A stretch of DNA of 64,000 nt from positions 108,603 through 172,602 of the forward strand of contig JBBKVO010000018.1 in NCBI GenBank assembly GCA_037968475.1, given 5' to 3'. The translations under genes and the position numbers were made by a program. Below the pieces are notes generated by a model that saw only the letters and a program-made list of their open reading frames with translations, did not search any database and was not told the origin of the DNA. This document shows, in pieces, positions 9,464 to 57,846 of this stretch. Every line of letters starts with the position of its first letter. The stretch's first letter is position 1. The DNA comes from Bacteroidia bacterium (lineage in GTDB: Bacteria; Bacteroidota; Bacteroidia; UBA8524).

Positions 9464-10804
9464 TTACAAATCTTCTGCACGCTCTACCAACTTAGGGTCT
9501 AGCTGTTTAGATACTTTTGCTCCCAACTCGCGCAAAGTTTCGGCACGGCGTATAAGGTTTCCGCGCCCTTCGTAAAGCTTTTTCATACTGTCTTCATAAG
9601 CTCCCTGTGCCGATTTCATTTTCTTGCCCAAATCAATAAGGTCTTCGGTAAAGTTTACAAATTTATCGTACAAATCGCCGCCTTGCCTTGCTATCTCCAG
9701 CACGTTACGGTTTTGGTATTCTTGCTTCCAAATATTGGCTATGGTGCGCAGGGTGGCCAGCAGGGTACTACTGGTTACTATTACTATATTTTGATCGAAG
9801 GCATCATTAAATATTTCCGAATCGCTTTGCACTGCAACCGCAAAGGCCGATTCTATGGGGATAAACAACAATACAAAATCAGGCGTATCAATCTCGTACA
9901 ATTGGTGGTAGCGTTTTTCGCCCAGTTGTTTTATATGCTCGCGAACCGATTTTATATGCGCCTTTAGCCACGTTTGTTGCTCTTCTTGCGTATTGGCCGA
10001 TGAGTACCTTTCATACGCCGTTAGCGATACTTTTGAATCGACAATTATATTTTTATTGTCGGGCAGTTTTATAATAACGTCGGGCTGTTGGCGGCGACCT
10101 TCATCATTCACAAAACTTTCTTGCACACTATACTCTTGCCCCTTGGTAAGTCCGCTTTTCTCCAATACTTTCTCTAAAATCAGCTCACCCCAATTACCCT
10201 GTGTTTTGCTTTCGCCTTTCAGGGCTTTGGTTAGTCGGTTAGCATCCTCACGCATCCCTTGGTTTAGTTCGGTAAGTCCACGTATTTGCTCGGCTAGTCG
10301 GCTTTGCTCCTTGCTATTTTCAAGGTGGGTATCTTCCACCTTTTTCTTAAACTCATCCATCTTCTCCTTCAACGGGTTTAGCACTATATCTAAACTATCA
10401 CGGTTTTGACGAACAAATTTTTCGCTTTTCTCTTCAAATATTCTATTGGCAAGGTTTTCAAACTCTTTAGCTAAACGCTGCTGTAAGGCTTCAACCTCTT
10501 GTTTCTGTTCAGTAAGTTTTTGTTCAAGGTTTTGCAACTGGTTAGCCAGTCGGCTATTATCAGCCGTTAGGCTTAGGCTTTGTTTCTGGGCATCTTCAAA
10601 CTGGGTTTTAGCATCAAATAAAGTAGCCTGTAATGAGTTGGCTTTCTCTTCCAATCCTGCCTTCTCGGCAGTAATACGCGATATTTCTTGCCCACGCATA
10701 TCAAAATCGGTACGGGGCACCATTTGGGCTATTTTGTTTTTACCCAAAAGCCAGCCAATAAAAGCTCCTGCTACTAATCCCACCACTACAAACAGTATTT
10801 CCAT
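9464..10804 (-). CDS. rmuC: DNA recombination protein RmuC
   Basis: Coiled-coil N-terminal half and a conserved RmuC C-terminal nuclease-like domain (YHQLYEIDTPDFVLLFIPIESAF...). The ORF track extends to 10903. The start at MEILFVVVGLV (10804) is more likely, giving an N-terminal TM helix. Confidence 0.9.
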   Translation of the reverse strand: MEILFVVVGLVAGAFIGWLLGKNKIAQMVPRTDFDMRGQEISRITAEKAGLEEKANSLQATLFDAKTQFEDAQKQSLSLTADNSRLANQLQNLEQKLTEQKQEVEALQQRLAKEFENLANRIFEEKSEKFVRQNRDSLDIVLNPLKEKMDEFKKKVEDTHLENSKEQSRLAEQIRGLTELNQGMREDANRLTKALKGESKTQGNWGELILEKVLEKSGLTKGQEYSVQESFVNDEGRRQQPDVIIKLPDNKNIIVDSKVSLTAYERYSSANTQEEQQTWLKAHIKSVREHIKQLGEKRYHQLYEIDTPDFVLLFIPIESAFAVAVQSDSEIFNDAFDQNIVIVTSSTLLATLRTIANIWKQEYQNRNVLEIARQGGDLYDKFVNFTEDLIDLGKKMKSAQGAYEDSMKKLYEGRGNLIRRAETLRELGAKVSKQLDPKLVERAEDL

Positions 10805-10877
10805 ATTTTTGCCGCTTAATTTTTTATTACACCAATGCTTACCAAAGGGCAATATTCGTACTAATTTTGGACTTTTT

Positions 10878-12242
10878 ATGCTGAAAACACCCACAAAACC
10901 CACTCGCGCTATTACCCTAAAAGGTAGACTGTTGGCTCGTTTTGTGTGGTTACTACTGCTTTGCGTGCATTTTTTTAAGTGGAAAAAATGGCAATACCCG
11001 CCTGCGGGTTTTCACGATGACCCTTTGCATTTTAAACTTAAAGACATTCTGTTTTTTGCATATAAATACTATTTCCGCACGCTAGAAAAGGCCGAAAAAA
11101 ACTCTGGTATCGAAGATTATTTTAAAACTCAAAACTTTTCTTTTCCCGAAAAACCTTTGGGTGCAACTACCATTACACTGAGTGCAGGTGGCGATTTGAT
11201 GCCCTACGAATGGATAAACCCCAACAGCACAAAACACTTGTGGGACGAGGTGGGCGACTTTTTTTTTAACAGTGATATTGTTTTTGCCAACCTTGAAACA
11301 CCAATGGTTTTAAGCGAAAAACCTTCACTAACACCAGAAGTTATGCTTAACGATATGTATTTTAACGGTTCGGAAGAGTTGTACTCCATTTTTAGTGGAA
11401 ACAGAAAATACAAGGGCTACGATATTCTAAGCACTGCCAACAACCACATGTTGGATATGGGTGAAAAGGGACTAAAAACCAATTTAGATTTTTTAAAAGG
11501 AAAAGCCCTTGCCGTAGGTTCAGCATACGATAAAGAGGGACAAGATGATTTTCCTATTGTTGAACGAGACGGAATACAAGTAGCATTTTTGGCCTATACA
11601 TATAGCCTTAATAAACTACAACCTATTGAGGGCAAAGAATACCTTACCAACTACTTGCCTCTAAACCAAGACGGTTGCGATATTAGCTTGATTATTCATC
11701 ATGCAAAGTTGGCAAAACAGCGCGGGGCTGATATGGTAGTATGCTCGCTACACTGTGGTTGTGCCTACCAAGCCTATCCTGCCAATCATACGGTTGATTT
11801 GTACCATCGTGTTTTTGATGAGGCGGGCGTTGATGTAATTTTAGGGCACCACCCACACAACCCGCAACCTATGGAGCAATACCCTTTTACTGATCCTTTT
11901 ACAGGTAAAGATAAGCTGGGCTTTGCCATATACTCGCTAGGCGATTTTGTAGCGTACGATTTAAGTATTTTTTGCCGTATGCCTTTGCTTTTAAAGTTTG
12001 AAATAACAAAAACTTACGAGCATACTTTTGTCTCGGGCTTACAAATTTTACCCGCCTACCTTGCCGGTAAAAAAACTGCACAGGGTATGGATGTGCGCTT
12101 ACTAAACCTAGATAAAATTGCCCAAGAAAACTATACACATCCGTTTTTAAACAAGGCATTAAAAAAAGAAGCTGGCACTCTTTACAGCTTTTTACAAAAC
12201 CATATTATACGGCCACAACACGAAATATGGCTGAAACATTAA
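10878..12242 (+). CDS. CapA/PgsA-family protein (poly-gamma-glutamate synthesis-type metallophosphatase)
   Basis: The LSAGGDLMPYEW...DIVFANLETP motif matches the PGA_cap family. The ORF-track N-terminus (10446-10877) overlaps rmuC on the opposite strand and is judged spurious. The start was chosen at MLKTPTKP. Confidence 0.75.
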   Translation: MLKTPTKPTRAITLKGRLLARFVWLLLLCVHFFKWKKWQYPPAGFHDDPLHFKLKDILFFAYKYYFRTLEKAEKNSGIEDYFKTQNFSFPEKPLGATTITLSAGGDLMPYEWINPNSTKHLWDEVGDFFFNSDIVFANLETPMVLSEKPSLTPEVMLNDMYFNGSEELYSIFSGNRKYKGYDILSTANNHMLDMGEKGLKTNLDFLKGKALAVGSAYDKEGQDDFPIVERDGIQVAFLAYTYSLNKLQPIEGKEYLTNYLPLNQDGCDISLIIHHAKLAKQRGADMVVCSLHCGCAYQAYPANHTVDLYHRVFDEAGVDVILGHHPHNPQPMEQYPFTDPFTGKDKLGFAIYSLGDFVAYDLSIFCRMPLLLKFEITKTYEHTFVSGLQILPAYLAGKKTAQGMDVRLLNLDKIAQENYTHPFLNKALKKEAGTLYSFLQNHIIRPQHEIWLKH

Positions 12243-12891: not shown

Positions 12892-14871
12892 TTGCAAAAA
12901 GCATTTAAAAAAATAGCATCTTTTAAAACGCTGAAATATGTAGTTATTACAATTTCAGCGTTTTTAGTTTTAGGCATTGTAGCATACTTTGCTCTGCGTA
13001 ACTATGTTTTGCAAAAAGCCTTGCAAAAAGTAAAAGGCAAGGTTGAAAATAGTACTCATCTAAGTTTTGCTGTGGGTAATGCCCAATTTAAAGGGTTAAA
13101 TACCATACAGCTTACCCAAATAAGTCTTGTGCCACAGGGTAAAGACACACTTTTTACTACCGATAGCGTACAAGTATCTATAAAACTATTACCTATTGTT
13201 TTTGGTAAAATACGTCTTAGTAAACTGCAAGTGGCCAATACCCATGTGTATTTGCGTAAAGACAGTTTGCAAACTAATTTTAGAGGACTTCTAAAACCTC
13301 GTAAAAAGACGGAAAAGAAAGAAAATGCAGACAGGGATGTATCAAAAAGCACCTTTGAAGCTATAAAAACTCTTTTACGTTACTTGCCCGATGAGGTAGA
13401 TGTAAAAAATGCTCGCCTTAGCTTAAAGTATAATGATAGCCTACGCTACATCACCCTAAAAAAACTGGATTGGGACAATAGTAAATTTGCAGCACTAATT
13501 GAACCCCAAAAAGAATTTGGACAAAGCGATTGGATAGCAGAAGGTTATTTTGATAAACACGAAATTAAAGGCGAGCTAAACCTATCAAGTTCTGAGGGAA
13601 TAGATATTTACCTTGCTTCGCTATTCAACTCAGGTTTAGGATTTAAAAAACTACACCTGCAAATAGATCAACTGGATTATAAAAACAAAACCCTTGTGTT
13701 TGATGCCAAGGGAGATATAGACAGTTTGCGTATATATAACGAACGCCTTGCATTGGATACGGTACGCATAGCCAAAACCGGTGGCAATCTTGCCCTGCAA
13801 ATAAACCGCAACTTTGTAGTTTTAGATTCATCATCAACCTTTAGTATTAATGATATTCGCCTTAGTGCTTTTGCCCAATACCCCTTGGGAAAAGAAAAGC
13901 AATATGCCCTAGCACTTAATATGCCCAGCACCAATGCGCAAAACTTTTTCAACTCGCTGCCACAAGGCATGTTTAGAAAGTTCGATGGTATAGAGGTAAA
14001 AGGTAATTTATCGTACAGGCTTAATTGTGCTATGGATGGTGCCATGCCCGATAGCTTGCAGTTTACATCTGAACTTAAAAAAGAAGATTTTGAAATTGTA
14101 AAATATGGTGCTGAAAACTTTGCCCGTATTAACGGTGCTTTCACCCAAACGGTGTTTGAAGGTGGAAAACCCATACGCAGTTTTGTGGTAGGAGAAGACA
14201 ATCCATACTTTACCCATAGCGAGGCAGTGAGCCCGTTTTTTAAAAATGCCTTGCTGATTAATGAAGATCCTTCATTTTTTTACCATCACGGTTTTATACC
14301 GCAATCGTTTAGAGATGCTATTGTAGCGGTGTATAAAGCAGGGTTTAAGTTTGTACGTGGCGGTAGCACCATAAGTATGCAATTGGTTAAAAATGTGTAC
14401 TTAGAACGCCGCAAAACCATATCGCGCAAAGCCGAAGAAGCCCTTATTGTTTGGCTGATAGAAAACAACCGAGTGAGTAGCAAAGAACGTATGTTTGAGG
14501 TATACGTTAATATTATTGAGCTTGCACCAGGTGTGTATGGTATTGGCGAGGGTGCACAATTTTATTTTAACAAACGTCCTGCCGATTTAACCCTTGCCGA
14601 AGGCATATACCTATCAAACATTATCCCACGTCCAAAAGCCTTTAAATACGGGTTTGAAAAAGACGGTAGTATGAAACATTGGCTGCAAGAAAAAGCCAAC
14701 CTTGTAGTGCGCCGTATGGTGCAGCGCGAGTGGTTACCCGCTACGGACACTATTGGTTTTAGCCCGCAAGTAGTACTAAAAGGAGCTGCAAAAAACTTTA
14801 TCATTCCTGATAGTGTGGCCATAGAACCTATGGATACTTTGCCTGACACATTAAAGATTTTTGAAGAGTAA
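12892..14871 (+). CDS. Membrane protein with a C-terminal GT51 transglycosylase domain
   Basis: N-terminal TM helix and a ~430 aa domain of unknown function. The C-terminal ~200 aa carry GT51 motifs (EDPSFFYHHGF, RGGSTISMQLVKNVYL). The gene starts 4 nt after frr. Confidence 0.7.
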   Translation: MQKAFKKIASFKTLKYVVITISAFLVLGIVAYFALRNYVLQKALQKVKGKVENSTHLSFAVGNAQFKGLNTIQLTQISLVPQGKDTLFTTDSVQVSIKLLPIVFGKIRLSKLQVANTHVYLRKDSLQTNFRGLLKPRKKTEKKENADRDVSKSTFEAIKTLLRYLPDEVDVKNARLSLKYNDSLRYITLKKLDWDNSKFAALIEPQKEFGQSDWIAEGYFDKHEIKGELNLSSSEGIDIYLASLFNSGLGFKKLHLQIDQLDYKNKTLVFDAKGDIDSLRIYNERLALDTVRIAKTGGNLALQINRNFVVLDSSSTFSINDIRLSAFAQYPLGKEKQYALALNMPSTNAQNFFNSLPQGMFRKFDGIEVKGNLSYRLNCAMDGAMPDSLQFTSELKKEDFEIVKYGAENFARINGAFTQTVFEGGKPIRSFVVGEDNPYFTHSEAVSPFFKNALLINEDPSFFYHHGFIPQSFRDAIVAVYKAGFKFVRGGSTISMQLVKNVYLERRKTISRKAEEALIVWLIENNRVSSKERMFEVYVNIIELAPGVYGIGEGAQFYFNKRPADLTLAEGIYLSNIIPRPKAFKYGFEKDGSMKHWLQEKANLVVRRMVQREWLPATDTIGFSPQVVLKGAAKNFIIPDSVAIEPMDTLPDTLKIFEE

Positions 14872-16673: not shown

Positions 16674-16867
16674 TGTTAAAAATTTGCTACAAATATAGGT
16701 GTATTGCTTTTTTTAAAAACCTGTAAATGCAATATGTACCTGCAAACTAAACAAAATCAGTACAAATAGCCCATAAATACAAGGCCACAATACTATACAC
16801 CCATACTATTTCCGTTTATAAAGATAGACTGGCTTTTATTACTTTTGCCATGGCTTATTGTATACAC

Positions 16868-17113
16868 ATGACAAACGAGGAAATAAAAGAAAAAACAAAC
16901 TCCATTTTTCATAAAGTTTTTAGCGACGAGAGTATAGGAATACACCCTGAAATGACTGCAAAGGATGTGGAGCGTTGGGACTCGCTAAACCATCTCACCC
17001 TTATAACATCGGTAGAAGAAGCCTTTGGGATAAAATTTAAGCTGAAAGAACTAATAAGTATGAAAAACGTAGGTGATTTACTTCGCTTAATAGAAGCCAA
17101 AACAAACGGCTAA
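16868..17113 (+). CDS. Acyl/D-alanyl carrier protein-like
   Basis: ~81 aa with a DSL(N) phosphopantetheine-attachment-like motif (WDSLNHLTLI). It is the first gene of a tight operon. Confidence 0.65.
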   Translation: MTNEEIKEKTNSIFHKVFSDESIGIHPEMTAKDVERWDSLNHLTLITSVEEAFGIKFKLKELISMKNVGDLLRLIEAKTNG

Positions 17114-17122
17114 TACAATACC

Positions 17123-18721
17123 ATGAATAAAATTTGGCAATCGGTAGCTATACTTTTTACACTCAATGCAGCCCTATTGGGCTTTGCCTTTGTGTATGAA
17201 AATACTTTTGCCGCTTGGGATAGTGAAGCCAACACCAAAGACGGACGTTTTCGCTTTATTACCCTTAGTCAAATACTTACGCCCGATACCCTTTCCATCA
17301 ATCAAAATGCCGAACAGATAGCTGAGGACTTGCTAAAAAGCGATATGCTTGAGATTGTTAAGATGGAGAAAAAAGGTAAACTAGATTCGGCATTTTTAGA
17401 TAAACCGGGTGATACAACCATAAAATCAAACCTGATTATTAACCCCCAAGCATTAGACGATTTTTTTGCTACGCTTATACAAGAAAAAGACAATACATTG
17501 GTACGCGTAGCCCATTACGGAGACTCGCAACTTGAGGGAGATAGGGTAACAGCACATATACGCAGAAACCTACAAGCTAAATTTGGCGGTGGTGGTTTGG
17601 GCTATGTGCCTTTTGACGATGTAGCCAGTAACTCAAACTATACCCGCACCAATACAGGCAAATGGTGGCGGTACAACGTGTTTAATATGCGCCGCAAAAA
17701 CAACAGTTACTACGGACTTAGTGGTAGCGTGTTTAGGTTTGCAAAAGGCAGTAATACACCCGATAGCGCTAAGGCTTCAAAAAGCATAAAAATCATTAAA
17801 CCTGATAGCACTATAAAGATAAAAAAAGACACTGTAAAGCTAATTGCCAAAGCCGACACCGTTAAAAAAGCTAAAAAAGATACCAATAGTACCCAAACTG
17901 CAAAGGCATTACCACAAAATGGGATACTAAAAAATGCTTCGGTTACTTATAAATTAGCTAAATGGGTAAACTACCAGCGTGTATCGTTGATGTATGGACA
18001 GGCTAAAGAAAGTTTTGGGGTTAAATGCTTTACTTTAGATAATGAGTTGATATATACCGATAGTATAGTACCTCTTATGGGTTTTGCCAGCAAAAAACTT
18101 AACATCCCCGCTGGGTTAAAAGGTTTTAAACTAGAGTTTACAGGTACTACCAGCCCTGATTTGTATGGGCTGCAAATTGATGATACCACAGGTATTATTG
18201 TAGATAACTATGCCATACGCGGCCACAGTGGCGATGGCCTTTTTAGAATAAACGACGAATATTTGGCGCAGCAATTGCAAGGTACTAATACAAAGCTTAT
18301 TATATTTCAGTACGGTGCCAATATGCTGCCCTACTTAGAAAGCGAAAAAGAGTGCAAGTATTACGAAGATGCCTTTTATCGTTTGTTTAGAAAATTTAAA
18401 AAAGCTGCCCCAAATGCTGCTATATTGGTAATAGGTAACGGCGATATGGGGTTTGTAAAAGAAGGCGAAGAACAATCGTACCCGTTTGTGCGCTGCCTTA
18501 GCGATGTACAAAAAAATGCAGCCACACGCGCAGGTTGTGCATTTTGGAGTTTACTAGATGCAATGGGTGGCGAAAACGCTATATTGACATGGAATAGAAA
18601 AGGCTTGTGCGCGCTTGATGGGCATTTATCGCCCAAAGGGCAAAAAATAATAGCCAACCTTATATTCAAATCGATAATGCGCGAATACAATAACTTTATA
18701 CTAAAACAACAAAATAGTTAA
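17123..18721 (+). CDS. SGNH/GDSL-like hydrolase or acyltransferase (DltD/AlgX-like)
   Basis: Block I motif HYGDSQLEGD, an N-terminal TM/signal segment, and a 10-nt gap from the ACP gene. Confidence 0.5.
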   Translation: MNKIWQSVAILFTLNAALLGFAFVYENTFAAWDSEANTKDGRFRFITLSQILTPDTLSINQNAEQIAEDLLKSDMLEIVKMEKKGKLDSAFLDKPGDTTIKSNLIINPQALDDFFATLIQEKDNTLVRVAHYGDSQLEGDRVTAHIRRNLQAKFGGGGLGYVPFDDVASNSNYTRTNTGKWWRYNVFNMRRKNNSYYGLSGSVFRFAKGSNTPDSAKASKSIKIIKPDSTIKIKKDTVKLIAKADTVKKAKKDTNSTQTAKALPQNGILKNASVTYKLAKWVNYQRVSLMYGQAKESFGVKCFTLDNELIYTDSIVPLMGFASKKLNIPAGLKGFKLEFTGTTSPDLYGLQIDDTTGIIVDNYAIRGHSGDGLFRINDEYLAQQLQGTNTKLIIFQYGANMLPYLESEKECKYYEDAFYRLFRKFKKAAPNAAILVIGNGDMGFVKEGEEQSYPFVRCLSDVQKNAATRAGCAFWSLLDAMGGENAILTWNRKGLCALDGHLSPKGQKIIANLIFKSIMREYNNFILKQQNS

Positions 18722-18742
18722 CGCTACGTTTAACACACAAAT

Positions 18743-20515
18743 TTGAAACTAATAAAAAACATATTACCCCTACTACTGCTATTGGCAGGGCAAATTGCCC
18801 AAGCCCAAAACAGCGGTATGAAAAGTAGTTTGTATAACGATACGTTTGCCGATGAAAGCTATGTATCGCGTTTTGTGCGCTATCAAAAATATTATTCGTT
18901 TATAAAATACGACGAGAACTATTTTGAGTGGGCAGATGTAACAGCTGTTGATAATATATATGCCAAACTGGCTCGCGCCAACAGCAAAAAAGTAAACATA
19001 TTACATATTGGCGACTCGCATATACAAGCCGATTTTTATACAGGTTATGTACGCGAGAATATTCAAAAAGTATTTGGCTATGGCGGTAGGGGCTTTATAT
19101 TTCCCTATGCGTGCGCAGGCACACACTCTACCTACGATTATCGTACTTGGAAATACGGCAACTGGGATGGTGCCCGTAACGTGAAAAATCCTAACCTGAT
19201 GGATATTGGTATTACAGGTGCTGTAGCCCGTACTACCGATGAAAAAGCAGGTTTTAAATTTGGTTTTAAAGAAGGCATACTTATGCCTGAATTTACAACA
19301 CTAAAAATCTATTGTAAAAAAGACAGCCAAAGTTTTAACCTGAAACTGAAACTTGCCAACTACCCCGATACCATATACCTAAACACTAACGCCCGACCCA
19401 ACAGCCCATACATACGTGTTGATTTACCCGTAGTATCTGATACATTTGAAGTATTTGTTGATAAAACCGACAGCACACAAACCTTTTTTGAGTGTTACGG
19501 CCTAATGATAGAAAGCTGCAAAGACAAGGGCGTAACTTATAGCAGTGTGGGTATTAACGGTGCTGGTTTTGGCAATGTTCTAGCCCAAACCTTGTTTGAA
19601 GGGCAGGTACAAGAACTAAAACCTGATTTGGTGGTAATAGATTTGGGTGCCAACGATTTTTATGGTTTTAACTATAACGAATTTGAACTGCGTACCAACC
19701 TAGAGAGTCTTATAAACACTATTAAAAAAGCATCACCTAAAGCATCAATACTTATATCTTGTTCGCAAGATATTTACTATCGTCGCCGTAAAAATGTATA
19801 TGCTACACACCCGTTTTCAAAACTTATACAGACCACCGCAAAAGCTAACGGAGCTATTTGGTACGATTATTTTGCCATATCGGGCGGGCAATATTCTATG
19901 CAAAAGTGGAGGCGTTACCATTTGGCAAAAAATGATAAAGTACACCTTACCACAGCGGGTTATAACCTTAAAGGCGACTTATTTCTAAATGCTTTGTTAA
20001 ACTCGTACTTAGAGTATCTGAAAGGGCGTCCCGAAAGCCTTATAGTAGCTAATGGCGGGCTAAAAAGTAAAAGTGTTATAGATAACCTTTTTAGTGATAA
20101 AAATAGTGTTACCGACCCTGAAAACGACAGCACCAAAACCCAAATAGTGTACAGAGTTAAAAAAGGCGAATACCTTAGCAGCATAGCCAAACGGTATGAT
20201 GTAGATATTGAGGATATTATGGATTGGAACGGGCTGGAAAAAACCTACCTGTACTATGGTCAAAAACTAACCTTATATGTAGATAAAACCGTAGCCACCA
20301 AACCACAGGTTACCGCTACTACACAGACTGAACCTAAAACTACCCCTAAAAAATCCACAACAACCGGTGGTGGGGTAAAATACAAAGTAAAATCAGGCGA
20401 TACACTTTGGGATATTGCAAACCGCAATGGAGTTAGCGTAGCAGAAATTAAAAAACTTAACAACCTGCGCGGAGATGCCATCAGGGCGGGACAAACCTTA
20501 GTTATCAGCAAATAA
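18743..20515 (+). CDS. SGNH/GDSL-like protein with two C-terminal LysM domains
   Basis: Signal peptide and a LHIGDSHIQAD block. Two LysM repeats (YRVKKGEYLSSIAKRYDVDIEDIMDWN..., YKVKSGDTLWDIANRNGVSVAEIKKLNNL...). TTG start as annotated in the track. Confidence 0.55.
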   Translation: MKLIKNILPLLLLLAGQIAQAQNSGMKSSLYNDTFADESYVSRFVRYQKYYSFIKYDENYFEWADVTAVDNIYAKLARANSKKVNILHIGDSHIQADFYTGYVRENIQKVFGYGGRGFIFPYACAGTHSTYDYRTWKYGNWDGARNVKNPNLMDIGITGAVARTTDEKAGFKFGFKEGILMPEFTTLKIYCKKDSQSFNLKLKLANYPDTIYLNTNARPNSPYIRVDLPVVSDTFEVFVDKTDSTQTFFECYGLMIESCKDKGVTYSSVGINGAGFGNVLAQTLFEGQVQELKPDLVVIDLGANDFYGFNYNEFELRTNLESLINTIKKASPKASILISCSQDIYYRRRKNVYATHPFSKLIQTTAKANGAIWYDYFAISGGQYSMQKWRRYHLAKNDKVHLTTAGYNLKGDLFLNALLNSYLEYLKGRPESLIVANGGLKSKSVIDNLFSDKNSVTDPENDSTKTQIVYRVKKGEYLSSIAKRYDVDIEDIMDWNGLEKTYLYYGQKLTLYVDKTVATKPQVTATTQTEPKTTPKKSTTTGGGVKYKVKSGDTLWDIANRNGVSVAEIKKLNNLRGDAIRAGQTLVISK

Positions 20516-20518
20516 TAC

Positions 20519-22003
20519 ATGGATTTTTCTGGCTTTTTGCAGCAGTTTGCCTACAACCCTATAAAAATACTTCAGTTCAATTCGGTCTTCTTTTTTGGCC
20601 TATTCTCCATATTCTATGTGCTGTATGCTGCTTTCTTCAATCGCATACAAGTTCGCAATGGTTTACTACTACTCTTTAGCCTGTTTATCTATTACAAACT
20701 AAGCGGTTTGTATATAGTGCTAATGTGCCTAGTAGCACTCAGCGATTTTTTAATAGGTAAGCAAATACTAAAAACACAAAACGAAGGAAAAAAGAAATGG
20801 TGGCTGCTGCTATCCCTTATTATTAGTGTGGGTTCGCTTATTTATTTTAAATACACCCCGTTTATATTAGAAAATGTAAACACACTTTTAGGTTCAAACT
20901 TTACCCCACCCACAGGCTTTTTAATGCCTATTGGTATATCTTTTTACATATTCAAAACCATCAGCTATGTAATGGATTGCTATAACGAGATGATTGAAGA
21001 GCCTGAAAAAAATTACTTCGATTATCTATTATACTTATCACTATTTACCACACTAATAGCAGGCCCCATAGTTCGTGCCCGCGACGTATTGCCCCAACTA
21101 AAACAAAAACTTGTAGTAAGTAAGGAGTTTATGGGACAAGGCTTTTATTTAATACTGATTGGAGCTGTAAAAAAATACCTAATTGCCGATTTTTTGTGGG
21201 TCAACTTTATCGAGCGTGTGTTTACCTCGCCCACAATATTTTCTGGCTTCGATAATCTGATGGCCATGCTAATGGGCACCATACAGTTTTATTACGATTT
21301 TGCAGGATACACTGATATGATGCTGGGCATATCGCTACTACTAGGGTTACAATTGCAGGGTAATTTTAACCGTCCGTTTATGGCACAAAACATTAGCGAT
21401 TTTTGGCGCAGGTGGCACATAACCCTATCTACTTGGCTAAACGAGTACGTGTTTATGCCCATGTCGTTCGCGTGGCGTAGCGGTGGCAAGGCGGGAGTGG
21501 TTTTTGCCAGTTTATTCACCTTTGTAATATCGGGAATTTGGCATGGACCAAAATATACGTACATACTTTGGGGCACACTTCACGGTGCAGCAATAGCATG
21601 GGATGTTGCCAGCCAAAACTGGCGTTTTAAGCTAAAAAAGAAGATAAACAGTACTTTGTACAAGGTAGTAAGCATAATCATCACCTTTGCCTTTATAAGC
21701 CTTACTATGGTGATTTTTAATGTGAAGCAATTGCCAATGGCTTGGGATATGTACGAAATGATATTTGCCAAAATGAATTGGGCATTAGCGCCTGAGTGGT
21801 TTAGCATATACTACAAAGAGTTTATCATTTTTGCATTGGCTGCCTTAGTACATTTTTTACCGTTAAAAATTAAAACATACTCAATGCAGCAATACACACT
21901 ATTGCCTTGGCCGCTAAAATCGATAGTAGGTTTGGTGGTTATTATATTTATATACCAGTTCTTCTCAGCAGAAACACAGCCTTTTATTTACTTGCAGTTT
22001 TAG
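20519..22003 (+). CDS. MBOAT-family membrane O-acyltransferase (DltB/AlgI/PatA-like)
   Basis: Multi-TM protein with an FYIFKTISYVMDCY motif and a conserved His (RRWHITLSTWLNEY). Confidence 0.85.
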   Translation: MDFSGFLQQFAYNPIKILQFNSVFFFGLFSIFYVLYAAFFNRIQVRNGLLLLFSLFIYYKLSGLYIVLMCLVALSDFLIGKQILKTQNEGKKKWWLLLSLIISVGSLIYFKYTPFILENVNTLLGSNFTPPTGFLMPIGISFYIFKTISYVMDCYNEMIEEPEKNYFDYLLYLSLFTTLIAGPIVRARDVLPQLKQKLVVSKEFMGQGFYLILIGAVKKYLIADFLWVNFIERVFTSPTIFSGFDNLMAMLMGTIQFYYDFAGYTDMMLGISLLLGLQLQGNFNRPFMAQNISDFWRRWHITLSTWLNEYVFMPMSFAWRSGGKAGVVFASLFTFVISGIWHGPKYTYILWGTLHGAAIAWDVASQNWRFKLKKKINSTLYKVVSIIITFAFISLTMVIFNVKQLPMAWDMYEMIFAKMNWALAPEWFSIYYKEFIIFALAALVHFLPLKIKTYSMQQYTLLPWPLKSIVGLVVIIFIYQFFSAETQPFIYLQF

Positions 22004-57234: not shown

Positions 57235-57846
57235 CTATTCACCATTTGAAGCAGAAGTATTTAATTGCTTTTGCTTATCGCTTAAAATAGTTTCAGCATG
57301 GGCTTTTATGTGCATATCTGAAAATGGCACATATTCTTCAGGAGTTTCGGGGTGTTTCTTCAAAATGCGGTGTACCCAAAGTACGTCGTGCCATTGATTA
57401 TTTTTATAACCTACCTTTTTGTATACACCAACAGGCGTAAATCCCAGTTTTATATGAAACATTGTGCTGCTTTCATTAGGCTGTGCTATTCCTGCATACA
57501 CATTTATCACATTTTGATGGTTCAGTATTTCTAGCAATGCTTCATAAAGCAATTTAGCTAATCCCCTACCCTGATAATCGTTGTGTACATATATGGAACT
57601 TTCGGCACACCAACGGTATGCTGTTCTATCACGGTGTTTTTTTGCATAGGAATACCCTACTATTTTTCCTTCGTATTCTGCTATAATCCAAGGGAATTCA
57701 ATAAGCATTTCATCAATTTGCTGGCAAAATACCTTTGCCTCTTCTACATCATAATCAAATGTTACGTTTGTTTCTTTCACATACGGAGTATATATAGCCA
57801 ATATCCCCTCGGCATCTTCACTGCGAGCTATTCTTAGATTTATCAT
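57235..57846 (-). CDS. GNAT-family N-acetyltransferase
   Basis: Q/RGRGLAKLLYEAL acetyl-CoA-binding motif. Confidence 0.8.
   Translation of the reverse strand: MINLRIARSEDAEGILAIYTPYVKETNVTFDYDVEEAKVFCQQIDEMLIEFPWIIAEYEGKIVGYSYAKKHRDRTAYRWCAESSIYVHNDYQGRGLAKLLYEALLEILNHQNVINVYAGIAQPNESSTMFHIKLGFTPVGVYKKVGYKNNQWHDVLWVHRILKKHPETPEEYVPFSDMHIKAHAETILSDKQKQLNTSASNGE

Follow-up and report, generated by a model that had tools for sequence, protein, structure and literature searches.

What is the role of an acyl carrier protein gene placed at the head of an operon for extracytoplasmic acylation that encodes no ligase to load it? The question is raised by four co-directional, plus-strand open reading frames (ORFs) in a 64,000-nucleotide stretch of DNA from a Bacteroidia bacterium (assembly GCA_037968475.1, contig JBBKVO010000018.1, positions 108,603 to 172,602), which we analysed as a whole and refer to as the window. 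In order, they encode a small carrier protein, two SGNH-family proteins that we call S1 and S2, and an MBOAT-family acyltransferase; the ORFs as listed are 87, 532, 590 and 494 aa long (Table 1) and are separated by untranslated gaps of 9, 21 and 3 nt. A sequence-only reading had placed all four genes correctly, with a first gap of 10 nt, and had quoted the motifs WDSLNH, HYGDSQLEGD, LHIGDSHIQAD and RRWHITLS, every one of which is present. It had interpreted the genes as an operon of the Dlt type without its DltA ligase. Our findings lead us, on balance and with some reserve, to a different description: a Bacteroidota cluster of the O-acyl-peptidoglycan type, in which an MBOAT with a PatA-type fused shuttle would receive its acyl group from a dedicated carrier rather than, or besides, acyl-coenzyme A (acyl-CoA).

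For comparison, homologous loci were collected in a scan with S1 homologues, one genome being taken per species. At least 588 loci were confirmed, of which 80 were fetched with ±10 kb and their ORFs classed by phmmer; individual loci are cited below by L numbers. S1 homologues are numerous, and those with organism names are all from Bacteroidota.

The MBOAT protein matches PF03062 (E 9e-24), and DltB provides both its sole NCBIfam match (TIGR04091, 184.5 bits against a cut-off of 375) and its only solved relatives, to which it aligns over residues ~106-400 only (6BUG, E 7e-18). Two histidines are invariant in 50 homologues. H300, in the RRWHITLS motif that had been singled out earlier for its conserved histidine, corresponds in alignment to DltB position 289; H342, in GIWHGP, corresponds to DltB His336 and is the catalytic histidine that MBOAT proteins conserve universally. 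The C-terminal part of the protein contains two further hydrophobic helices, at residues 435-453 and 460-478, and ends in ...PFIYLQF, in which F489 and Y491 are again invariant in the 50 homologues. Indeed, each of the ~55 full-length MBOATs of the related loci ends in an FxYxxF motif. PatA and other non-Dlt bacterial MBOATs carry precisely such an acyl-shuttle motif on two extra helices that are absent from DltB; the shuttle tyrosine is auto-acylated and then donates to an SGNH partner, whereas in Dlt the motif resides on a separate microprotein, DltX (Anderson et al. 2025, PMC12148441). No DltX-like small ORF ending in a shuttle motif is found in the window. By these features, the enzyme is best classed as a PatA-type MBOAT with a fused shuttle, and not as one of the DltB architecture previously assigned to it.

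The two SGNH proteins also depart from the Dlt pattern. S1 and S2 are paralogues, their two SGNH halves aligning in BLASTP at 4e-10 and 3e-7, and both match Lipase_GDSL_2 (PF13472; E 4e-15 for S2), which together with PF03062 bears out the earlier recognition of an MBOAT and SGNH extracytoplasmic acylation system. Their solved relatives are O-acetyl-peptidoglycan esterases of the Ape1 family. With a profile built from 20 homologues of S1, the matches are Ape1 of Neisseria meningitidis (4K3U, E 1e-21) and of Campylobacter jejuni (8GKD, 8GLD; ~E 6e-12), all other structures falling at E > 0.5, while S2 matches 4K3U at E 2.8e-15 and the Campylobacter jejuni structures at 3e-10, aligning in two halves either side of an insert. 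An AlphaFold2 model of S1 (predicted local distance difference test, pLDDT, 75; predicted template-modelling score, pTM, 0.72) was compared with the PDB by Foldseek, and its five best matches are all Ape1 (4K3U, 8GLD, 8GKD; E 2e-20 to 2e-16, TM-target 0.71-0.75), with 4K3U itself at E 2e-20 and TM-target 0.74. The next-best matches are at E 1e-6, and none of PatB, DltD, AlgX or AlgJ is among the top 50. Likewise, structure-linked sequence searches with S1 and S2 returned Ape1 only, without a match to AlgJ/AlgX or DltD. Like Ape1, S1 has a beta-sandwich insertion between its SGNH blocks I and II. We thus regard both proteins as Ape1-family members and not as the DltD-like proteins they had been taken for, a classification that draws on sequence for both and on the predicted fold as well for S1.

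The SGNH catalytic residues are intact in both paralogues: Ser135, Gly367, Asn400 and His501 of S1 are invariant in 79 homologues, and Ser92, Gly273, Asn304, Asp398 and His401 of S2 in 58. The motifs of S2 are those of a canonical Ape1 (GDSH, GING, GAND, DKVH). S1 has GDSQ at block I and DGH at block V; the latter is one residue short, [DN]GH, throughout the carrier-associated clade, whereas the carrier-less branch keeps the canonical DxxH. Hydropathy predicts an N-terminal transmembrane helix in S1 (aa 4-24) and a signal-peptide-like N-terminus in S2. Separately, S1 contains a Lys-rich low-complexity insertion (KASKSIKIIKPDSTIKIKKDTVKLIAKADTVKKAKKDTNSTQTAK; window 17660-17920, aa ~180-266) that lies inside the inserted domain, is modelled with pLDDT < 50 and is specific to the window's clade.

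Two Ape1-family genes followed by an MBOAT gene constitute an arrangement with a precedent in the same phylum. Clusters of ape1b, ape1c and pat were predicted to serve peptidoglycan O-acetylation in Bacteroides thetaiotaomicron, B. fragilis and Porphyromonas gingivalis, and peptidoglycan O-acetylation of 27-69% was measured in the two Bacteroides species (Weadge, Pfeffer & Clarke 2005, PMC1199599). Judged by gene order and family membership, the S1-S2-MBOAT core appears to match this cluster, a comparison made with the published description (order, families, motifs) of a cluster that was itself predicted. S2 fits both of the described motifs I, GDS(H/F), and VII, Dx(V/T)H, and shares the beta-rich insert after motif I; S1, with GDSQ and its short block V, fits neither. 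Two further differences are the tandem LysM domains of S2 and the carrier gene preceding the cluster, of which there is none in the 2005 description. Our literature search found no later work on Ape1b or Ape1c, and a profile search with the carrier-less S1 branch returned 3,062 proteins, among the best 120 of which no Bacteroides names occur, these being proteins of metagenome-assembled genomes (MAGs) and Maribellus.

Relative to the PatA/PatB/Ape1 machinery of Neisseria and Campylobacter (PMC12148441, 4K3U, 8GKD), the operon shares the conserved MBOAT histidine, the C-terminal FxYxxF on two extra helices, the Ape1-fold SGNH and, probably, the peptidoglycan target. It differs in having two Ape1 paralogues and no PatB-type transferase, in possessing a carrier gene where PatA uses acetyl-CoA, and in an MBOAT segment, discussed below, that lacks the GGNR sequence.

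Peptidoglycan is the likely target, as had been proposed from the LysM domains. The two LysM repeats reported for the second SGNH protein are found at E 1.7e-33 and recur on S2 in every carrier-associated locus; carrier-less sister loci, including that of the isolate Maribellus comscasis, have an SLT+LysM lytic transglycosylase gene immediately upstream of S1; the homology of S1 and S2 is exclusively with Ape1; and the 2005 measurements establish O-acetylated peptidoglycan in Bacteroides. It could be argued that the LysM domains merely tether S2 in the periplasm and that the acyl group is destined for another extracytoplasmic glycan or lipid, such as an exopolysaccharide, lipopolysaccharide or capsule, in the manner of AlgI/J/X or WssH. 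Several polymers are indeed acylated by MBOAT-SGNH pairs; the alginate and cellulose acetylation systems (AlgI/AlgJ/AlgF/AlgX; WssF-I) also have a fused-shuttle MBOAT, and an anchored SGNH protein accompanied by a soluble one with a glycan-binding module recalls AlgJ and AlgX. Furthermore, the window, L006 and L007 all have an upstream PGA_cap gene. Such a target is nonetheless improbable in our judgement, since peptidoglycan O-acetylesterases are the only sequence and fold relatives found for S1/S2, the lytic transglycosylase occupies the same operon position in sister loci, and no polysaccharide synthase, synthesis or export genes are conserved beside the operon in the window or in its relatives, whose flanks vary even between close relatives. 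The carrier, moreover, distinguishes the operon from the alginate and cellulose systems.

With peptidoglycan as the likely acceptor, the new element relative to the known core is the dedicated carrier protein. The first ORF had been called carrier-like on its WDSLNH motif, and this identification holds. Pfam PP-binding (PF00550) scores 20.8 bits, equal to the cut-off, and generic acyl carrier protein models of NCBIfam reach E 5e-7, below their cut-offs; the best solved relative is PDB 2LML, a putative acyl carrier protein (E 8e-16), and the phosphopantetheine attachment serine stands in its proper context and is present in all ~40 carriers compared. The DltC equivalog model NF003464, by contrast, scores 13.6 against a cut-off of 68. 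For the carrier, comparison with L008 and L006, for which dS is not saturated, gives a ratio of non-synonymous to synonymous substitution rates (dN/dS) of 0.08-0.09; the ratio for S1 within the ligase-less clade is 0.06-0.08. The carrier is under purifying selection that matches that on S1. Because it adjoins the core genes in ~36 related loci from many species, lies only 9 nt from S1, always keeps its serine and has a low dN/dS, we favour the view that the carrier functions within the system.

Further evidence comes from the MBOAT. In the Dlt pathway, residues M302, V305, I306 and M309 of the horizontal helix HC of DltB contact DltC (PMC11035591). The segment aligned to this helix reads P-[LM]-S-[FYI]-x-[FLW]-R in carrier-associated MBOATs and is hydrophobic, as in DltB, whereas in carrier-less MBOATs it reads P-L-G-G-N-R, often followed by an insertion of ~45 residues. 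PLGGNR is a sequence that we take to be typical of AlgI/PatA-type enzymes. GGN[RK] occurs in none of the 36 MBOATs that have a carrier or ligase in the locus, and all 11 MBOATs with GGNR are without a carrier (Fisher p = 3e-7, phylogeny ignored). GGNR is also absent from DltB and from a separate MBOAT lineage found beside adenylase-GNAT-carrier modules (L102, L106). In these alignments, the presence of a carrier goes with the loss of the GGNR segment from the MBOAT at the site where DltB docks DltC.

These modules form an observation in their own right. In L102:1598-5404, in L103 and in L106:2486-6665, an adenylase-GNAT-carrier module lies beside a shorter MBOAT of 471-488 aa that ends in FIYFQF and has no GGNR; no Ape1-like SGNH gene is found on their short contigs. 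They may represent a second carrier-fed MBOAT system.

The evidence on the carrier bears directly on the simplest alternative, namely that this is an ordinary acetyl-CoA-dependent O-acetyl-peptidoglycan cluster in which the small upstream gene is a bystander, a regulator or a gene of another pathway. The latest mechanistic account of bacterial MBOAT-SGNH pathways holds that those outside Dlt operate without a carrier protein because they draw on acyl-CoA, PatA having been shown to use acetyl-CoA (PMC12148441). An operon without a loader, a PF00550 score only at threshold and the lack of a nearby carrier in L016, L040 and L043, which belong to the same MBOAT clade, would all fit such an arrangement. 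A bystander, however, would not be expected to retain its position, its serine and purifying selection across distant species, nor to track a specific change where the MBOAT aligns with the DltC-docking helix, and ligase-carrier pairs are inserted into the same operons of relatives. We consider this explanation unlikely, and a dedicated carrier as acyl donor remains the reading we prefer.

Comparison of the loci revealed that the loader modules vary by lineage and that the window's locus has none. In type A, the order is adenylase, 218-aa GNAT, carrier, S1, S2 with LysM, and MBOAT (L003, L012, L013, L029, L032, L041 and L061, together with L045, where adenylase and GNAT are fused). Type A' has the GNAT and carrier before the core and no adenylase (L021, L022, L038, L044). 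In type B the core is followed by an acetyl-CoA-synthetase (Acs)-like ligase and a carrier (L001, L030, L031, L035), and L027 and L054 additionally have an upstream carrier. Type C consists of carrier and core only, with no loader nearby; it comprises the window, L005-L011 and L014, which have 65-94% S1 identity and different flanks, and a second clade, L023-L039. Finally, type D has no carrier, an S2 without LysM and an MBOAT of ~505-576 aa, often with the SLT+LysM lytic transglycosylase directly upstream of S1 (Maribellus comscasis, L088, and others). Among the 80 fetched species loci, approximate counts are 10 of type A, 4 of A', 9 of B and 13 of C.

The type A adenylase is a stand-alone adenylation domain of the non-ribosomal peptide synthetase type (TIGR01733, 320 against a cut-off of 317), which falls short of the DltA model (NF003417, 290 against 476) and lies about equally close to DltA (3E7W, 213 bits) and to the second adenylation domain of LgrA (212 bits). 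We read its A4 Asp and the residues adjacent to A5: the Asp of A4 FDLS, which binds the alpha-amino group, is kept, and this suggests that the enzyme activates a small amino acid. The type B ligase resembles acetyl-CoA synthetase (NF003313, 683 against a cut-off of 729; PDB 9G79, 499 bits) and reads DTWFQTETG where Acs has DTWW. As its gene is directly followed by that of its own carrier, the arrangement suggests loading of acetate or another short acid onto that carrier. For the 218-aa GNAT, database comparison found no close characterised relative, and it is speculation on our part that it N-acetylates the aminoacyl-carrier or loads acetyl from acetyl-CoA.

Several individual loci are informative on these modules. 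In L045:465-2672, the DltA-like adenylation domain and the GNAT form one protein of 735 aa, a fusion implying that the two act on the same substrate. In both L027:9606-16679 and L054:9355-16002, a carrier gene upstream of S1 is accompanied by another after the Acs-like ligase, and the two belong to different subfamilies. Split components also occur, with a ligase but no carrier in L017, an adenylase and GNAT without a carrier in L026, and a GNAT alone in L094. A metagenome scan with the GNAT family yielded 21 loci, most of them again beside the core; only in L094 and L095 does the GNAT stand alone, which lends weak support to in-trans arrangements. In the type A locus L003, a second GNAT (13234-13740), similar to ArsN1/phosphinothricin acetyltransferase (NF040503, 144 against 170 bits), lies between S2 and MBOAT, and a weak relative of it is encoded in the window at 57235-57846 on the minus strand.

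How, then, did the window come to have a carrier and no loader? In a neighbour-joining tree of MBOATs, all the carrier-associated loci form one clade, within which L012 and L013, both of type A, are the sister group of the window's clade. The window's carrier, which falls in the subfamily of 'upstream' carriers, shows 63% identity with a carrier of type A, compared with 47% for one of type B. On this basis, the ancestor of the window lineage was most likely of type A, its adenylase and GNAT having since been lost or relocated.

Such a loss might have left a decaying remnant, in which the carrier, and possibly the operon as a whole, has ceased to function. The sister relationship to adenylase-GNAT-carrier loci and the missing loader are what this would predict, and in L014 (OZ244977.1, a complete long-read MAG) S1 and MBOAT are each split into two ORFs (10001-11562 and 13351-14834). 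The latter may be either sequencing frameshifts, to which a long-read MAG may be subject, or real pseudogenes. Against decay, the window and 8 relatives of 65-94% identity with different flanks have intact copies of the four genes, the catalytic residues are all kept, dN/dS is low for both carrier and S1 (~0.06-0.09), and the unrelated clade L023-L039 shares the ligase-less layout. We therefore give this explanation very little weight. As a further observation on the window's relatives, L010 (CALRQL020000016.1) is titled 'MAG: Agrobacterium sp.' and yet its locus is nearly identical to that of L009, a Bacteroidia MAG, which probably means a mislabelled or contaminated bin.

The same loci allow the original comparison with Dlt to be assessed. 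A true Dlt-type system would pass D-alanine via a DltC-like carrier, a DltB-like MBOAT and a DltD-like SGNH protein to a teichoic-acid-like or other anionic polymer, with DltA encoded elsewhere. The analogy is sound in one respect: as in Dlt, a small carrier presumably hands a thioester-bound acyl group to the MBOAT, and in sister species the orthologous carrier gene directly follows that of a stand-alone adenylase as close to DltA as to any other adenylation domain. DltB is, besides, the only family to which the MBOAT could be matched among NCBIfam models and solved structures. It fails in the family of the SGNH proteins, which are Ape1-like, and in the architecture of the MBOAT, which bears its shuttle tyrosine itself and dispenses with DltX. 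In addition, the DltA, DltB and DltC models all score well below their equivalog cut-offs, the LysM and lytic transglycosylase associations indicate peptidoglycan in a Gram-negative envelope rather than teichoic acids, and other relatives use an acetyl-CoA-synthetase-like ligase. Teichoic acids are not known from Bacteroidota. A genuine Dlt pathway is accordingly very improbable here.

We return to the carrier-fed, O-acyl-peptidoglycan reading, for which we infer the following chemical steps, division of labour between S1 and S2, and acceptor atom. The holo-carrier, with phosphopantetheine on Ser39 (81-aa numbering), would be charged in the cytoplasm with a small acyl group by an enzyme not encoded in the operon. 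The acyl-carrier would then dock on the remodelled cytoplasmic segment of the MBOAT, whose active site (H342, H300) would pass the acyl group to Tyr491 of the FIYLQF shuttle at the periplasmic face. From this tyrosine, it would be taken by an SGNH serine. Since no PatB-type transferase is present, one of the Ape1 paralogues would have to perform this step, and S1, through Ser135, is favoured because it is membrane-anchored, always present, kept when S2 is absent (L100) and divergent in blocks I and V. The acyl group would then be transferred to peptidoglycan, most likely to the 6-OH of N-acetylmuramic acid. S2, held on peptidoglycan by its LysM domains, could act as a de-O-acylase that removes the ester, the role of Ape1, or could be the terminal transferase.

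Acetyl is the acyl group we would name first, its chance being a little short of even, followed more tentatively by an aminoacyl or N-acetyl-aminoacyl group. It is tempting to speculate further that Bacteroidota possess a second carrier-dependent MBOAT-SGNH pathway, acting on peptidoglycan and fed by interchangeable donor modules, an Acs-like ligase giving acetyl-carrier and an adenylase with GNAT giving aminoacyl- or N-acetyl-aminoacyl-carrier. Some lineages, possibly including that of the window, would then esterify an amino acid onto the cell wall, and a change of donor from acyl-CoA to acyl-carrier would show in a single cytoplasmic MBOAT segment (GGNR as opposed to S-[FYI]-x-[FLW]-R). We regard this extended proposal as doubtful; if true, amino-acid esters of the wall would be a Gram-negative counterpart of D-alanylation.

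A number of observations weigh against the reading that we prefer. The first concerns the loader: no AMP-binding enzyme was found anywhere in the window by tblastn with the two ligase types from related loci (chance matches only, E > 1), in line with the earlier statement that the operon has no ligase; nor is there a loader gene within ±10 kb in 9 close relatives. A conserved extra gene beside the ligase-less loci, which might serve as an alternative loader, was looked for and none was found. The second concerns the docking segment, in that seven MBOATs without GGNR have no carrier nearby and the correlation spans few independent lineages. The third concerns the SGNH proteins. Both keep the esterase-type glycine of block II (G367 in S1, G273 in S2), and neither has the atypical block II of PatB and OatA, both established transferases (in PatB, Gly to Ser or Asn), so that a transferase role for S1 or S2 is an assumption. 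The catalytic Asp of S1, Asp499, is kept in 62 of the 79 homologues. Additionally, S1-like genes occur with a lytic transglycosylase only, near a gatA-like amidase gene and with no MBOAT within 10 kb (L064, L072), which fits an esterase role for the S1 family.

In these last loci (L064:7138-11404 and L072:6983-11314, from Chitinophaga-like and Flavobacteriales genomes), the S1-family gene directly follows the genes for an SLT+LysM lytic transglycosylase and the gatA-like amidase. The layout recurs in L053, L055-L057, L062, L063, L069, L074 and L081, and suggests an esterase and lytic transglycosylase pair that is independent of acylation machinery.

The significance of the operon family lies in its combination of elements. 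The family is present in hundreds of Bacteroidota species and joins a PatA-type fused shuttle to a dedicated carrier and, in relatives of the window, to dedicated ligases; the literature we searched gave no relevant description of a carrier-linked O-acetyl-peptidoglycan cluster or of Dlt in Bacteroidota. The family would be a natural intermediate between two known designs, carrier-fed Dlt and acyl-CoA-fed PatA, and offers a direct test of how an MBOAT encodes the choice of its donor. It is also a candidate for the peptidoglycan O-acetylation machinery of Bacteroidota, a phylum without PatB, and may produce new esters of peptidoglycan, with effects on how sensitive members of a phylum abundant in environmental and gut settings are to lysozyme and lytic transglycosylases.

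Table 1 Features of the carrier-associated operon, in window coordinates
Feature	Position	Strand	Basis and notable residues
Candidate -7 promoter-like box TACTTTTG	16840..16847	+	matches Bacteroidetes-type TAnnTTTG; read from sequence
Acyl carrier protein, 81 aa from probable start	16868..17113	+	PF00550; phosphopantetheine Ser codon 16982-16984 (in WDSLNH)
S1, predicted membrane-anchored Ape1-family SGNH protein, 532 aa	17123..18721	+	PF13472; Ser135 17525-17527; His501 18623-18625
S2, predicted secreted Ape1-family SGNH protein with two LysM, 590 aa	18743..20515	+	PF13472, LysM; Ser92 19016-19018; Asp398/His401 19934-19945
S2 LysM repeats, C-terminal	20141-20272 and 20381-20506	+	Pfam, E 1.7e-33
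Predicted PatA-type MBOAT, 494 aa	20519..22003	+	PF03062; H300 21416-21418; H342 21542-21544
MBOAT cytoplasmic segment (remodelled), aligned to the DltC-docking helix of DltB	21455-21496	+	alignment
MBOAT extra C-terminal transmembrane helices (aa 435-478), predicted	21821-21952	+	hydropathy
MBOAT putative acyl-shuttle motif FIYLQF with Tyr491	21983-22000	+	motif

The box TACTTTTG agrees with TAnnTTTG, which we take to be the Bacteroidetes-type -7 promoter consensus, and is a possible promoter of the operon. The carrier gene probably starts at the ATG at 16868 instead of at the listed 16850, because its homologues begin MT..EEIK and because of the position of this box.

The genes flanking the operon are frr, a GT51 transglycosylase gene, a DUF4421 gene, a phosphoglycerate-mutase-like gene and pckA; they differ between close relatives and are not conserved. 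The GT51 gene (12892-14871) lies between frr and the DUF4421 gene, a layout shared with L006, and encodes a 659-aa protein with a C-terminal GT51 peptidoglycan transglycosylase domain, a weakly DUF748-like N-terminal region and no transpeptidase domain. Further upstream, within 9464-12242, the PGA_cap ORF on the plus strand (10446-12242) shares ~460 nt of its 5' part with an RmuC ORF on the minus strand (9464-10903). The PGA_cap domain begins at residue 244, so the true start of this gene is probably far downstream of the listed TTG.

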